A stretch of 64,000 nucleotides of DNA from the NCBI GenBank assembly GCA_963555815.3, contig CAUVWX020000001.1, positions 320,001-384,000 on the forward strand, in the 5' to 3' direction. Source of the DNA: a bacterium. Lineage in GTDB: Bacteria > UBA8248 > JACPRG01 > G963555815. Below are positions 15,425 to 22,509 of this stretch, piece by piece. Below the pieces are notes generated by a model. It ran no database searches. It was not told the origin of the DNA and saw only the letters and a program-made list of their open reading frames with translations. Both the position numbers and the translations under genes were made by a program. Each line of letters starts with the position of its first letter. Within the stretch, counting starts at the first letter, position 1.

Positions 15425-17790
15425 ATGACCGTTAACTCCAAGGGCCGCGAGCTCTTCATCGTCGACAACAGTGTCTCTGGCTGGACCGGGCTCCGGTACT
15501 TGGAGGAGTGGTCCAGCATCGCGAAGGCATTCGACATCGCGACCGGATTCTTCGATATCGGCGCGCTGCTCGCCCTCGACGGCAAGTGGCAGGATCTCGA
15601 CAAGATCCGGATCCTGATGGGGGCGGAGACTACGCATCGGACTAGGAAGACCATTCTCGAAGCGGTCCGGGCGCAAGCGCTCGATAGGCTCGACGAAAGC
15701 ATCGAGGAGGACAAGGAGCCCAACCCCTTCCTACACGGGGTTCCCGCGATCCTCGACGCGCTCCGCTCTGGGCAGATCGAATGCCGTGTCTACGACAAGG
15801 ACAAATTCCACGCCAAGGCCTACATCACCCACGCAAAGCTTGAGGTCGTGGGCGCCCAGGCGCTGGTAGGCTCCAGCAACTTCACGCGGCCGGGTCTCAC
15901 AAAGAACATTGAGTTGAACGTCCAGATCCAGAGCGCGCGCGAGGTCGCGCAGCTCCAGGAGTGGTTCGAGACGCACTGGAACGAAGCGAACGAGGTCACC
16001 GAGGCCGTCATCGAGACGATCTCGCACCATACGCACCTCTACTCGCCGTTCGACGTCTACGCCAAGGCGCTGCAGCAGTTCTTCCGGGAGCACGAGTTGA
16101 CCGCGACCGAGTGGGACGAGACACGGTCGCGAATGTTCCCGCACCTCGATCGCTATCAGAAGGAGGCGTATTGGGCGCCCATGCAATCCTTCCGCCGGAT
16201 CCGTGTGCTCGACCTTCACGGGAACCTCAAGAAGAAGGAGGCTGCCCCCGGGGGTGGCCGCGATGTCAACGTGTTCGACATCCAGCAGGGCGTGGCCATC
16301 GGGCTCTTCACGAAGGCTGCCGCAGCCAGCAGATGTGTCTGCCACGCCGATCTCTGGGGCAAACAGGAGCAGAAGTACTGCTGGCTGTGGGAGCACGGCT
16401 CCGCCGACACCGAATGGGTACAGCTGGAGCCAGCCCCATCGTTCTATCTGTTCGAGCCCTTCGACGACGCAGCAACAGGCGCCTACTACGGCTGGCCTGC
16501 GATCAATGAGGTGATGGACGTCAACGTGACCGGAATCGTCACGGCGCGAGACGGCTTTGTCATCGACCTCAAACCGAGTGCCCTGCTGGATCGCATTGAA
16601 ACGTTTCTTGATAACCGACTGAGCGACAACGAGGTCAAGAAGCGTCTCGGTCTGAAAGAGAACTACGCCTGGCGAGTCGCTGCGGCTCGGCGCGAACTCC
16701 GCGCGGCCACAAAGCGGAAGCGGTTAGAGGACTTCGTTACCAAGATTCTCTATCGGCCCTTCGACGAACGGTTCATCTTCTGGCATCCGTCCGTAGTGTG
16801 GAAGCCTCGGACCGAAGCCATGCCGCACCTGCTCGCGGGGTGGAATCAGGCCCTGTGCATTGGTAGAGCGGGCCAAGTGATTGGTTCAAGCGTGTGGGAT
16901 GTCTTGTTCGCTTCTACATCCCCATCAGATTTAAATTTGTTTCGGCGTGGAGGGAACTGCCTTTTCCCTCTCTACCTCTATCCCGGAGTCGGCAAGGCCG
17001 ACGGGTCGCTGTTCAGCCGCTGGGCCAAGGGGTAGGATGGTCGCATGCCGAACCTGGACTCAGGGTTTGTCGAGCAGATAGCAGCCGCCACCGAACTGCG
17101 ATTCGTCAGCGACGGCCGCGGCGATCTCCACGAGGCCTTCGGCCCAGAGGACGTCCTCGCCTGGATCTACGCGGTGTTCCACAGCCCCGGTTACCGCGAG
17201 CAGTACGAGGCTCATCTCAAGCTCGACTTCCCCCGCGTGCCGCTGCCCGGCGGCGTCGACCTCTTCCGAAAGCTGGCTTCGGCCGGCCATGACCTGCTGG
17301 CCCTCCACCTGCTCGAATCCCAGAAGCTCGGTAAGCCCATCACCACCTACACCGGCCCCAGGAACCCCGAAGTCGGCCGCGTCGGCTGGTCGGACGGCAC
17401 CGTCTGGCTCGACGCCGGCAAGACCAACGCCCGCGAGGGCCACCGCGCAACGAAGCCCGGCACCATCGGGTTCCAGGGCGTGCCAGAGGAGGCCTGGGAC
17501 TTCCAAATCGGCGGCTACCAAGTCTGCCACAAGTGGCTCAAGAATAGGAAAGGCCGCACGCTCTCGGATGAGGACGTCGCCCACTACCAGAAGATCATCG
17601 TCGCCCTGAACGAGACCATCCGCATCATGGCCGAGATCGACGAGGTCATCGAGGAACACGGCGGCTGGCCCGACGCGTTCCAGACCGGCGCGGAGTCGGA
17701 TACGCGCATCAGAGGGACGGCGATGATGATCCCCTTCCGGCCACGCACGGTCTCGCCCGTGCCCGAGGACCGCTATATCACCTGCGTACC
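15425..17790 (+). pseudogene. Deletion fusion: PLD-domain helicase N-terminus plus C-terminal part of a Type ISP/IIG-like restriction-modification enzyme; in-frame TAG at 17033-17035
   Basis: FHAKAY...VGSSNFT PLD motif, then an abrupt switch at ~16180 to LDLHGN...NVFDIQQGVAI, YRPFD, YAVFHSP.YR, DFPRVP, QIGGYQVCHKWLK. ORF 17045 is in frame with 15425. Confidence 0.75.
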
Positions 17791-18318
17791 GACCCGGGCG
17801 GGGTTCGTGTACCTGGCCATCGTGCTGCGACGTGTTCAGCCGCCGGGTGGTGGGCTGGTCCATGGCCCATTATCTTCGGTACCGATCTGGTGCTCAAGGC
17901 GCTGAACATGGCGCTGGGACAGCGCCGTCCCTATGGGGTCGTGCATCATTCGGACAGGGGATCGCAGTACACTTTGCTTGCCTTCGGCAAACGATGCCGG
18001 GAGATGAACGTGCTTCCTTCGACCGGATCGGCCGGCGACTGCTTTGACAATGCGATGGCCGAGAGCTTGTTCGCCACGCTGGAGTGCGATCTCATCGACC
18101 GGCGCTCGTTCCGTACCCAGACAGAAGCGCGCATGGCGATCTTCCAATTCATCAAGGGCTGGTACAACCCACGCCGCCGTCATTCGACCCTGGGTTACCT
18201 CAGCCCCAACGACTTCGAACGCGCCGCGGCTGAGTCAGTTCGAAAACCGGACGACGCACCAAAATCTCCGTCAAATCACTCCGTTCTTGGAGGTCTCCCA
18301 GTTGGAAGTTCCGACTAG
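17777..18318 (+). mobile_element. IS3-family transposase OrfB remnant (frameshifted)
   Basis: IT.VPTRAGFVYLAIVL/DVFSRRVVGWSM, HHSDRGSQY, CFDNAMAESLFATLECDL, WYNPRRRHSTLGYLSP across shifting frames. Confidence 0.85.
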
Positions 18319-19058: not shown

Positions 19059-19493
19059 CACGATCCTCCTTACTTTTTGTTGACCGAGTGTTCACCAAAT
19101 TTCACAGCGAGTGGCCCGGACTTGAAACAGCCCTCATTGCCTAGGTGAGCCGTCAATTCTTCTACGATGTCGACTATCCGGCCAGAAATATATCCAAAAC
19201 AAGAGGAATAATGTCAATAAAAATATTCCAAACTTTATTCCCCTACCGGCCTATTTCCTTTTTCCATAGGGCCTTTGCGGCCTTTCCAGCAATTTTTTTC
19301 CGCTTCTTCCCACTCAATTTCTTGGCTCTAGCCTTACCCCTTTTTTTTCCTCCCAAGCGGCCAAAAGCTACAGCATGAGGATTCTTATCCCTCATCCTCT
19401 GGCCGCACCTCCTCTGGCTCGCCTTCTGTGGCCGTTTGGACTATGTTGGAGACTAGCAGGTTGCGGTCGGCGTGGGCGGTTTTTGGTAGTGTC

Positions 19494-20378
19494 TCAGTTT
19501 GAATTTATTTTTTTGTAGGGCCCACGTTTTTTCGGTGCCGGTTTCCTGGCATCAATCAGATTCAGCACGTCTTCCAATTCCCACACCCGATCAGTCAATC
19601 CCGCTTGCATGGCCGGAGTCACCCGCAAGGTCTTGTGAATCTTCACGAAATTGTAGAAGACAAAATACAAGGCCAGCGCGTGACAATGGTTGTCGATCTT
19701 CTTGGAAAAGGCGTTCGTCAAACGGGTGAACCGTCGCAGGCTCATCCTCATGGTGAGGTTATGCCGTTCCACATGAGACGTAGAGATATGCTGCTTGTCG
19801 GGATTGCCCTGAACCACTTGTTTTCGTGCGCCATTACAGACGAACGGGCTATACTTCCGTTCCTGTCCTGGTTCAGAAGACTCGCCGTAGAGTTTCACCA
19901 GTTGCGCATAATCAATGTTGTTGCCGAAGGCATCTTCCACGGCTTCAAGGTAGGCCCTGTGTCCGTCCGTCGTGAGTTGGACGCGGGTCGCCAGCCGTGA
20001 TTCCAAATCTCTCATAAACTCCGTGGCATAGCCAGCATCCCGATCACCCACCATCCATGACAGCATCAACCTGGAATTACTCTCAAGGGCCGTCCACGTC
20101 CACACGTCACCGGCTTGCTCAGGAGCTGCCTGGGCTGCCCTCACGTTCTTTTGCTTGGCATAGCAGAAACTCCAGATCTCATCACATTGCACTTTGGAAG
20201 CATGAACATTCCGAACCTTTTCATCGTGGAAGGCTTCGCAAGCGTGACCGGCTTCCACCAAGAGTTTCGTCACCGTGTTGATGCTCACGCCTACGATGCG
20301 AGAAATCGTCCGCATACTGGAGCCTTCGACCAACATGTTGAGAATCTGAATGCGCTTGGTGTTTGGTAACGTGTTCAT
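19494..20378 (-). CDS. IS1-family-like DDE transposase
   Basis: N-terminal HTH ([21 protein letters not shown]), [41 protein letters not shown]; stop codon lies inside the left TIR. Confidence 0.9.
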
Positions 20379-20385
20379 GCTGATT

Positions 20386-20414
20386 ACTATATGATATTAA
20401 TGCTTTAGTGTCAA
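20386..20414 (-). promoter_or_regulatory. Sigma70 promoter of the transposase, probably leaderless transcript
   Basis: TTGACA-17bp-TATAGT, ending 7 nt upstream of the ATG at 20378; no SD present. Confidence 0.7.
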
Positions 20415-20524
20415 GCAATTATTTCATATATAGAATGTTATTGACTTCGGCTATGCTGAAAGTAGAGCATAGGTTACTCATTTACGTAGGTGTAACAGTG
20501 CTAATTTGATGAAAGTAAAATTTT

Positions 20525-20872
20525 ATGGCGAAAGAGATTCCAGAAAAATTTGACTTCCACTTCGTTAAGTCAAACAGCTTCCGGGTAGTGCATTGCGATG
20601 GTGTGTGGGGAGGGACAACTCCTCGCGGCTATATAACGATGAGCGTCTATTCGGAACGGTCTCCACTTCCCCAGAAAACTACGCACCAAGTGCTGGATCA
20701 TGGACGGATCGGCCAAGAAACAGGCAAAGAGGGCAAGGAAGGGATAATTCGTGAGGTTGACGTTAAAGTTATCATGGATTTAAGCATGGCGCAAGGTCTG
20801 GTCACATGGTTGGAAGGGCATATAAAATTTCTTAAAGAACGACTAAAAGCTCAGCAAGGGAGCGGCCAATAG
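20525..20872 (+). CDS. Cargo gene 1: hypothetical, DUF3467-like protein
   Basis: Intact 115-aa ORF; FRVVHCDGVWGG...YSER...REVDVKVIMD..MAQGLVTWL pattern. Confidence 0.55.
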   Translation: MAKEIPEKFDFHFVKSNSFRVVHCDGVWGGTTPRGYITMSVYSERSPLPQKTTHQVLDHGRIGQETGKEGKEGIIREVDVKVIMDLSMAQGLVTWLEGHIKFLKERLKAQQGSGQ

Positions 20873-21342
20873 TGTTTACACTAACCAATGTTTCTTCTTC
20901 ACCAAGTGAAGGCTTGATGCCAATCAAGAGAGGCGATGATTCAGGGCCGAGACCATTCTCGTCGGTTTGCAACCGTCACACATCGGTTCAGGCACCGGAA
21001 GGCGCTAGCTTTTTCATTCTGTATCTCGTTAATTCTCCCCTGACAGCACGTTACTATATTGATGATGTTACGGTTCATATTACTGAATTGCCAGATGCGA
21101 CGCATTCTCTTCTAAAACCGATCCCTATACGGTTGAAACCTGTGGGAGAAGTGGAGTGGATGGCCAGCTTTGACGAAGCCAACATCGCCATGACTGGTAA
21201 CACACCGGAGGAGGCCAAGGAGTTTCTATCTTACAATATCATCGATGCCGTGGAATTATTTCATGCTAAAGAAGAAGCCTTGATACCCGATCTTAAGCAG
21301 ACTTTAGTGGTACTTCGTCAGTATATAGAGATCTCTGAGTGA
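20872..21342 (+). CDS. Cargo gene 2: HicB-like antitoxin with N-terminal extension
   Basis: C-terminal WMASFDEANIAMTGNTPEEAKEFL resembles the HicB partial RNase H fold; overlaps both neighbours. Confidence 0.55.
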   Translation: MFTLTNVSSSPSEGLMPIKRGDDSGPRPFSSVCNRHTSVQAPEGASFFILYLVNSPLTARYYIDDVTVHITELPDATHSLLKPIPIRLKPVGEVEWMASFDEANIAMTGNTPEEAKEFLSYNIIDAVELFHAKEEALIPDLKQTLVVLRQYIEISE

Positions 21343-21644
21343 AGTCCCTTACACAGGATGACGCCCATGCGATTGCCCATAAACTAGAAGCAACGATCGA
21401 AAGGAGAAGCAAGCATGATTGGGCTATTGTCGAGTATATGGGCCGAGTTGTTGCACAGTATGGAATCAGGCGAGCTAGCCGAGAAAAGAATCACGATCAT
21501 ATTCCCGGACAACTAAATATCTCGAGATTAGAAGCAAGAGGGCTTGCCGACTGTCCATTTAGCAAAGATGATTATTTTACGGCTCTACGCAGTAGAGGGA
21601 AGATTCCCATGGAAGGGGAAAACGGAACAAATAAAGAAAGTTGA
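21339..21644 (+). CDS. Cargo gene 3: HicA-like toxin
   Basis: ~100 aa; RSKHDWAIV (conserved His), QLNIS, DCPFSKDDY; GTGA overlap with the upstream gene. Confidence 0.5.
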   Translation: MKSLTQDDAHAIAHKLEATIERRSKHDWAIVEYMGRVVAQYGIRRASREKNHDHIPGQLNISRLEARGLADCPFSKDDYFTALRSRGKIPMEGENGTNKES

Positions 21645-21653
21645 AGTGTGGTA

Positions 21654-21884
21654 TTAGGAATATGCTCGCCACCGAGCCTGTGCAGCCCGCCTAGCAATCT
21701 CTCGCCGTTGTTCTGCTGTCAACCGTTGCGCTCGCACCGCCCCGCCTTTTAGCCCGCCCTTCTGGGCATACTCCTTCCCGGCCATCGTTTCGTCGTCAAC
21801 CTCACCCGTCGCAATCTTAGCCACCTTGATCGCGGCTCCAATCACGTCACCAGGCCGTTTCTGTCCTGACGGTCCTTTAGGCAT
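21654..21884 (-). CDS. Small basic KGG-motif protein at the element end
   Basis: MPKGPSGQKRPGDVIGAAIKVAKIATGE...KGGLKGGAVRAQRLTAEQRREIARRAAQARW; extended -10 (TGtTAAGCT) 6 nt before the ATG. Confidence 0.8.
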   Translation of the reverse strand: MPKGPSGQKRPGDVIGAAIKVAKIATGEVDDETMAGKEYAQKGGLKGGAVRAQRLTAEQRREIARRAAQARWRAYS

Positions 21885-22030
21885 ACGGGAAGCTTAACAC
21901 AACGCGAGGAGAAAAGAGAGAGCCTGCAAATTCAAACTGAGACACTACCCAATTTTTACTTAACCACTTTAGCATACCCTAAATACAGCATACCAAAGAC
22001 GGGATTGCAGGGGCAACCCCTTAGCCAGAA

Positions 22031-22052
22031 AAAATCAAACTGACCCACTACA
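22031..22052. mobile_element. Orphan terminal repeat of an older related IS1-like element
   Basis: AAAATCAAACTGACCCACTACA vs younger TIR AAATTCAAACTGAGACACTACC (18/22 identical); abuts the WD40 truncation point. Confidence 0.75.
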
Positions 22053-22230
22053 GAATGGTGTTGTCACTTGACGCCGAGGCGAGGAGGCGGCCGTCGGGCG
22101 AGAAGGCGAGGGACATGACCTCGTTGCCATGCCCCTCAAGAATCCGAACTTCTTGGGAGAGGGCAAGAGACGCAAAAAGGGTGGAAAGAGAAACAATCAG
22201 GGCCTGAAGGCGAAAATGGCGCACGGACAT
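22048..22230 (-). pseudogene. Truncated WD40 paralog (signal peptide plus first repeat)
   Basis: MSVRHFRLQALIVSLS...EVRILEGH...SPDGRLLASASSDNTI is close to the N-terminus of 9778-10749; its TAG is supplied by the orphan TIR. Confidence 0.85.
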
Positions 22231-22321
22231 CTTTTGCTCCGTTGGCCTGATTATATCCGAAAGGCGCCTCTCAGGCTTTTTTTCCTTGGTTTGGGGGGGT
22301 ACGAGTAATTGAAAAGAAGGG

Positions 22322-22393
<72 letters not shown>

Positions 22394-22509
22394 CTTCACA
22401 TAAAATCCTTATGATGTTCCAAATCAAGCCTTTCGGGGCCCCTTCGCACTTCGATGTTCATTAACATGACCGGGCTTCCAGGTCAACCGGGAAAGGGGAT
22501 CCCTATCCA

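Follow-up and report, generated by a model that had tools for sequence, protein, structure and literature searches.

The three genes analyzed here are carried by an IS1-family element that occupies positions 19485-21949 of the window, i.e., the whole stretch of 64,000 nucleotides of bacterial DNA that was analyzed. The terminal inverted repeats of this element enclose five genes: that of the transposase, the trio and a small ORF encoding a basic protein (Table 1). As originally predicted, the ORFs of the trio are intact and translationally coupled, overlapping at position 20872 (genes 1 and 2) and at positions 21339-21342 (genes 2 and 3). Their immediate neighbours, taken for decayed in that prediction, proved to be the intact gene of a 294-aa transposase and an intact 76-aa ORF; the latter also adjoins relatives of gene 1 in four other loci (L001, L003, L008 and L032).

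Table 1. Features of the IS1-family element and of the genes that it carries (window coordinates)
Feature	Position	Strand	Description	Basis
Terminal inverted repeat, left end	19485..19506	+	22 bp	96% complementary to 21928-21952
Transposase gene	19494..20378	-	Intact IS1-family DDE transposase, 294 aa	NF033558 E 2e-21 (below its cut-off); PF03400 above cut-off
Intergenic region	20386..20521	.	AT-rich, with promoter-like sites	Consensus scan only
Promoter-like site	20414-20386	-	11/12, facing the transposase gene	Consensus scan only
Promoter-like sites	20408-20436, 20492-20521	+	9/12, facing the trio	Consensus scan only
Gene 1	20525..20872	+	115 aa, putative helper/sensor; beta-strand meander and C-terminal helix; remote DUF3467 relative	Sequence, predicted structure
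Gene 2	20872..21342	+	156 aa, GTG start; HicB-like antitoxin core spanning residues ~84 to ~152; DNA-binding domain lacking	Match of profile A6 to E. coli HicB (E 0.0044)
N-terminal extension of gene 2	20872..21090	+	About 70 aa (Ser/Pro/Thr fraction 0.30), a candidate chaperone-addiction-like element	Length and frame matched in relatives; composition
Gene 3	21339..21644	+	101 aa; putative RNase toxin with a HicA fold and two additional C-terminal helices; His26 and Cys72 conserved	Alignment, predicted structure
Small ORF	21654..21884	-	76 aa, basic, intact; companion of this IS type	ORF list
Terminal inverted repeat, right end	21928..21949	-	22 bp	

Contigs from another public run that have different flanks stop at 19485 and 21950, indicating that these positions are the ends of the element and that these ends are used at other sites too. 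Since the trio lies between the inverted repeats of an element whose ends are seen elsewhere, it can be considered as passenger cargo. One 1351-nt contig of the same run spans the entire trio, with 44 differences, and a contig of run X6 jumps over the cargo region (20419-21751), which suggests that related elements devoid of these passengers exist. Over the trio, the G+C content drops to 47-48%, compared to about 60%. The element is present in a single copy in this genome, where two further IS1-type transposases have different neighbours, and its 8-bp flanks, compared in a check for target-site duplication, agree at six of eight positions. The consensus scan found six promoter-like sites compared to 2.1 expected, and an inverted repeat lies upstream of gene 1 (20388-20430). 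One RNA run contains a 158-nt piece of gene 2, which does not count as evidence of transcription.

Upstream of a second IS1-type transposase (G000:C1:676935-679635), a pair of genes looks, by eye, Doc/Fic-like and Panacea-like (C1:676935-677928) and would be another toxin-antitoxin (TA)-like cargo of an IS1-type element. In the window, a degenerate second IS end (22031-22051), next to which lies a truncated WD40 fragment (22048-22230), is found some 270 nt from a tRNA-Thr gene (22319-22394), and the region 22031-22394 is likely an insertion hotspot. On the other side of the element are an IS3-like fragment (17890-18318) and a chimeric, broken restriction-modification-like region (15425-17905), in which the start of a PLD/helicase gene appears by eye to be fused to the C-terminal part of a methyltransferase gene.

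Characterization of the Three Genes

None of the genes of the trio has a direct match over cut-off in Pfam, NCBIfam or PADLOC, so that these libraries miss the module; the only match in PHROGs is weak and concerns gene 2 (E 0.071).

Gene 3, initially described as HicA-like, has 232 matching cluster representatives. Its structural model is confident (pLDDT 86, pTM 0.73) and shows an alpha-beta-beta-beta-alpha arrangement followed by two helices. A search of 48,161 chains gave as its best four matches 1whz (Z 6.9, rmsd 2.0, 65 aligned residues), which we take to be a HicA-family structure, and three HicA toxin chains, 6g26 (Z 4.5), 5yrz (Z 4.1) and 4p78 (Z 4.1); Foldseek retrieved E. coli HicA at TM 0.61 and E 1.5. 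His26 and Cys72 are conserved in at least 90% of 99 aligned sequences, which comprise gene 3, its single close homolog and 97 of the 150 that were listed; His26, at the beta1-beta2 turn, presumably corresponds to the catalytic His of known HicAs. Pfam assigned none of 99 gene-3 relatives to a HicA family. According to the model, the protein has a HicA fold, as had been proposed, and is a predicted RNase toxin.

Eight relatives of gene 2 were found. Pfam gave no HicB match for gene 2; similarity to HicB was revealed by the 12-row profile A6, which aligned with the N-terminal core of the E. coli protein (E 0.0044), in agreement with the proposed HicB-like C-terminal domain preceded by a Ser/Pro-rich extension of about 70 aa. 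The protein terminates at this core and is devoid of any HTH or RHH DNA-binding domain. The extensions of P0041 and P0042 are identical in length and frame to that of gene 2, and two relatives (82% and 74% identity) share its start position. In three of the eight relatives (P0043-P0045), the first residues of gene 1 are joined directly to the HicB core and the extension is gone. Their protein sequences suggest a joint loss of gene 1 and of the extension; the chimeras could also reflect simple decay. In L003, an insertion breaks gene 1 near the same 5′ point as the junction of these chimeras, and L080 harbors a HicB-like gene with a short N-terminus, no gene 1 and a broken toxin gene.

The aromatic patch SFFILYLV, highlighted in the original prediction as a feature of the extension, was rejected as a family motif: it is kept only in the three closest relatives of gene 2, in which LYLV is invariant, and not in the four distant trio partners. 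Two assemblies of what is apparently one locus (L042 and L043) differ by an in-frame loss of 69 aa within the antitoxin extension, which could be an assembly artefact.

For gene 1, 39 close relatives were identified. The likeness to DUF3467 put forward in the original prediction holds as a remote relationship and not as membership, gene 1 itself giving no match to DUF3467 (PF11950) over the Pfam cut-off. Five of the 40 members of the family match DUF3467 weakly in Pfam (best E 0.0034), and the Atlas lists for gene 1, at 0.86, a cluster of which 11% is DUF3467. A 63-row profile of the family aligned with 29 DUF3467 proteins at a probability of 62.9 (E 7e-5; reversed control, 0.11), the match being confined to the last 30 columns, i.e., the last strand and the helix. 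The links of the profile to COMMD-like proteins, to TIGR04255 and to a small "ERWSE" family stay at control level.

The partner had also been proposed to be other than SecB. An hhalign comparison of the profile with 33 SecBs gave a probability of 0.4 (E 0.16), and PF02556 (SecB) matched 0 of the 40 proteins of the gene-1 alignment (A1); a short match links the first strand of gene 1 to strand 1 of SecB (E 0.03 with four SecBs). That gene 1 does not encode a SecB is thus well supported at the sequence level and unproven by structure. The monomer model is weak (pTM 0.47) and consists of four strands followed by a long helix, the only helix predicted. Its best structural matches are COMM domains (Z 3.1, 3.0 and 2.9), Pur-alpha chains scoring lower (Z 2.1-2.3), so that a COMM/Pur-alpha-like fold is a lead only. 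SecB is absent among the 24 matches listed of 30 chains with Z of at least 2, which does not exclude a SecB fold. Foldseek found no match to gene 1 in the PDB at E ≤0.001, and its best match among viral models is an uncharacterised 112-aa siphovirus protein (E 0.007). Sequence searches of the PDB with A1, A3, A7, L082 and L087 were uninformative.

Gene Pairs Located Downstream of Relatives of Gene 1

Scans of genomes and metagenomes, one plasmid and sets of 201 and 251 sampled genomes provided the relatives of gene 1. Subtracting the window, six duplicates (L040, L043, L050, L051, L069 and L070) and two loci cut by contig ends (L008 and L034) from the 75 gene-1 loci left 66 assessable loci. 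A coupled two-gene pair is located downstream of the gene-1 relative in 49 of them (40 of 41 among the loci from pattern scans), the order in paired loci being helper-antitoxin-toxin. These pairs belong to at least five families: an NWD-motif partner with an unnamed gene (n = 26), several of which match the PADLOC candidates PDC-M32A/B, DUF7689 pairs (n = 12), HicBA-like pairs (n = 4), PemK/MazF (n = 2) and DUF5678 with an aspartyl protease (n = 1), besides one pair that looks HEPN-like by eye and three unassigned pairs. An identification of the largest family as CmdTA was borne out by no search. By eye, most third genes look like toxins; the third-gene profile A7 matched nothing in the PDB.

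The expected co-occurrence of the trio in other neighbourhoods was observed in four loci. In L075 and L077, the middle and third genes belong to the families of genes 2 and 3 of the window; L056 and L067 combine a related HicB-like gene with a different HicA-like family (by eye). Among 301 Acidobacteriota genomes, three have a relative of gene 3, in two full trios and a broken one (L080). No gene 3 was found on plasmids, which yielded one distant, pair-less copy of gene 1, and the viral contigs searched contained no relative of gene 1.

Most middle genes start close to gene 1 and carry an extension. The 41 loci for which a core is defined include that of the window; in 40 of them, the frame of the core is open back to the stop codon of gene 1, compared to five of 82 for the other two frames; the former count holds partly by construction, since ORFs were chosen near this stop codon and the frameshifted L029 and L033 were left out. 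The middle gene starts at most 30 nt from the gene-1 stop codon in 39 of these loci. The extensions have a median length of 68 aa (21-88) and are richer in Ser/Pro/Thr than the cores (0.27 vs 0.17); across families, they show no aromatic enrichment (0.078 vs 0.086 in cores) and no common motif.

The remaining 17 loci have no pair and mostly correspond to distant relatives in housekeeping surroundings, which argues for a TA-independent role of the gene-1 family. Such solitary relatives (L054, L055, L057-L062, L064-L066, L068, L073, L074 and L076) precede, for example, NFACT-R, DUF3108, nitroreductase or MiaB-like genes (by eye), and recall solitary SecB as opposed to TAC (toxin-antitoxin-chaperone) chaperones.

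A tree of 67 gene-1 proteins was built from few columns, the partial L003 being dropped. The five HicBA-linked proteins need five separate changes on it, all forced by well-supported branches, and the DUF7689-linked proteins need 11 of 13. Furthermore, the closest relatives of gene 1 of the window (57% and 54% identity) are associated with pairs other than HicBA. Both results indicate that the first gene was swapped among pairs. Many phyla and pair families show it in the same position and with the same coupling, and this also holds for loci without any IS in the examined flanks.

First Genes Located Upstream of DUF7689 Pairs

A reciprocal search for DUF7689 in 753 genomes revealed 35 loci, 27 of which (26 distinct) include a partner gene. 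Among the distinct loci, 17 harbor a coupled first gene that ends at the start of an extension of 45-88 aa, four carry fusions and a coupled first gene is missing from the other five. The 17 first genes belong to the gene-1 family (n = 2), TIGR04255 (n = 4), COMMD-like (n = 5), DUF3467 (n = 1, over the Pfam cut-off), a small unnamed family (n = 3) or others (n = 2). In terms of sequence families, genes of the gene-1, DUF3467, COMMD-like and TIGR04255 types thus replace one another in the first slot of this one pair family. One of the TIGR04255 assignments is confirmed by NCBIfam and three come from similarity seen by eye. The COMMD-like label derives from a motif that these proteins share and from a single Atlas lead (0.89); Pfam called none of these five first genes, and those of L082 and L087 gave no BLAST alignment with each other.

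The COMMD-like genes lie directly upstream of, and are coupled to, an extended partner followed by DUF7689 (L082:245-949, L087:205-900, L096, L109 and L113), and a COMMD-type helical domain seems by eye to be fused to the partner in L107; bacterial COMMD-like proteins may have a TA or defence context. The TIGR04255 genes are likewise translationally coupled to extended partners (L083, L095, L098 and L100), and the small unnamed family (L097, L103 and L105) consists of beta-rich proteins of about 90 aa with no meaningful Pfam match.

Extensions are also found in the absence of a first gene. Their median length is 57 aa with a first gene (n = 17), compared to lengths of 4, 20, 53, 62 and 68 aa without it, a difference that is not significant (p 0.20), and three of the five partners devoid of first gene keep 53-68 open codons before the core. 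These long extensions and this p value count against a TAC-like reading.

Proposed Mechanism and Alternatives

Taken as a whole, these results suggest that the trio is an as yet undescribed equivalent of the known defence modules that depend on a chaperone. By analogy with these, we give about an even chance to a TAC-like module in which a non-SecB partner binds the N-terminal extension of the antitoxin. The DUF3467-related protein encoded by gene 1 would likely oligomerise and would bind the extension while the antitoxin is being synthesized; the antitoxin, thereby kept folded or stable, would hold the HicA-type RNase in check. Titration of the gene 1 protein by a foreign (e.g., phage) protein, or loss of gene 1 along with the element, would then free the predicted toxin. 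We infer the toxicity of gene 3, its neutralisation, the binding of the extension by the gene 1 protein, a phage trigger and a role in defence or in addiction to the element. A broader proposal, which is conceivable and on the doubtful side, is that COMM/DUF3467-type oligomers (the gene-1 family, DUF3467 and bacterial COMMD-like proteins) and TIGR04255 proteins are interchangeable peptide-binding chaperone-sensors of N-terminally extended antitoxins, forming a widespread and undescribed mirror-image class of TAC systems.

The absence of an HTH or RHH domain in gene 2 would also be explained if gene 1 encoded a Pur-alpha/PC4-like nucleic-acid-binding regulator replacing the missing DNA-binding domain of the antitoxin, the sole role of the extension being to bring this regulator to the operator or RNA. 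The Pur-alpha chains among the weak fold matches, the inverted repeat upstream of gene 1 and the pI of 8.8 of the window protein agree with such a role, which we nevertheless consider unlikely: the gene-1 family has a median pI of 6.1 and a net charge of -2, COMM domains outscore Pur-alpha, and the same slot is occupied by COMMD-like proteins, which according to the discussion of PMC13392464 are devoid of nucleic-acid-binding surfaces. Gene 1 could also encode a scaffold or second antitoxin subunit acting on the toxin or on the folded core, and not on the extension, with no chaperone addiction; such a role would fit the close coupling within the operon as well as the COMM-like fold candidates, which form rings. 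A single family would then have to accommodate at least five unrelated folded partners, whereas the sole feature common to the middle genes is a variable low-complexity extension, and this makes such a subunit decidedly improbable.

Gene 1 might instead encode a very divergent SecB fold, making the trio an ordinary TAC in reversed order. The four strands followed by a long helix, the short match of the first strand to SecB and the existence of HicAB TACs speak in its favour; with a single predicted helix, no PF02556 match in A1 and a profile probability far below that obtained with DUF3467, we regard it as very unlikely. The same low probability goes to gene 1 being a functionally independent passenger that shares operons with a pair that is a plain HicBA addiction module. 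The gene-1 loci without pair, the extended partners without first gene and the varied cargo gathered by IS1-like elements, such as the TA-like pair at C1:676935-677928, are all compatible with this passenger, but the fixed position and coupling of the first gene across phyla and pair families, even in the loci without IS in the examined flanks, argue against it.

If the TAC-like module with a non-SecB partner represents a second, convergent architecture, it would supply additional candidates for sensors and defence modules, which escape current libraries, as well as testable functions for DUF3467, for TIGR04255 and for the COMMD-like proteins of prokaryotes, the function of which is called unclear in a 2026 paper. 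If the mirror-image class exists, chaperone addiction would have an origin independent of SecB, and a first function, in toxin control or defence, could be assigned to prokaryotic COMMD-like proteins.

Comparison with Known Systems

The pair of the window resembles class 8 hicBA as described by Gerdes in 2024 (PMC10865869): both show the hicB-hicA order, a HicA with two extra C-terminal helices (about 95 aa in class 8) and no DNA-binding domain. However, the HicB of class 8 has 342-356 aa and three domains, compared to 156 aa for gene 2, and the main text of that paper contains no mention of SecB, chaperone, tricistronic or "third gene".

DUF3467 (PF11950) shares with gene 1 a remote profile match and occupies the first slot elsewhere, whereas gene 1 stays below the Pfam cut-off. 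COMMD-like proteins also occupy this slot, and COMM domains are the best, albeit weak, fold matches of gene 1, but gene 1 lacks the COMMD helical N-domain and any profile match to COMMD-like C-termini. The function of prokaryotic COMMD-like proteins was left open in PMC13392464, from the main text of which the words toxin, operon, defence and phage are absent. Several pairs located after gene-1 relatives match PDC-M32A/B, but the PDC-M32A models have about 375 aa and are matched by their C-terminal part only, and the pair of the window is not matched. Our literature search, which covered main texts and few subscription journals, retrieved no description of this gene order or of these first-slot families with TA pairs; in it, DUF3467 appeared only in one unrelated paper and TIGR04255 did not appear. 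Related loci could be listed in Table S1 of PMC10865869.

The TAC systems considered were HigBA1-SecB(TA) of M. tuberculosis, HicAB-SecB(TA) of M. methanica, HigBAC of E. coli and CmdTAC. To our knowledge, every described TAC system relies on a SecB-like chaperone. In HigBAC, this chaperone is the phage sensor. According to PMC5105189, removal of the extension renders the TAC antitoxin independent of the chaperone, a rule that the pattern of P0043-P0045 and L080 fits, and a ChAD grafted to an N-terminus stays functional with its chaperone. According to PMC3581621, the HicBs of TACs all had an RHH domain.

Compared from sequence alone, the trio differs from TACs by its accessory-antitoxin-toxin order (T-A-C in TACs), by an extension that is N-terminal whereas the ChAD is C-terminal, by an accessory protein that is not detectably SecB, by a HicB core without RHH and by the lack of aromatic enrichment. 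As in TACs, it forms a mobile three-gene operon with a variable antitoxin extension beside the accessory gene, and solitary relatives of the accessory gene exist. In TACs, one chaperone family serves several TA families and the extensions are variable (PMC5105189, PMC3581621 and bioRxiv 2024.02.24.581848). The gene-1 family, whose members precede several unrelated pairs with an extended middle gene, parallels in this respect the association of SecB-like TA chaperones with several TA families.
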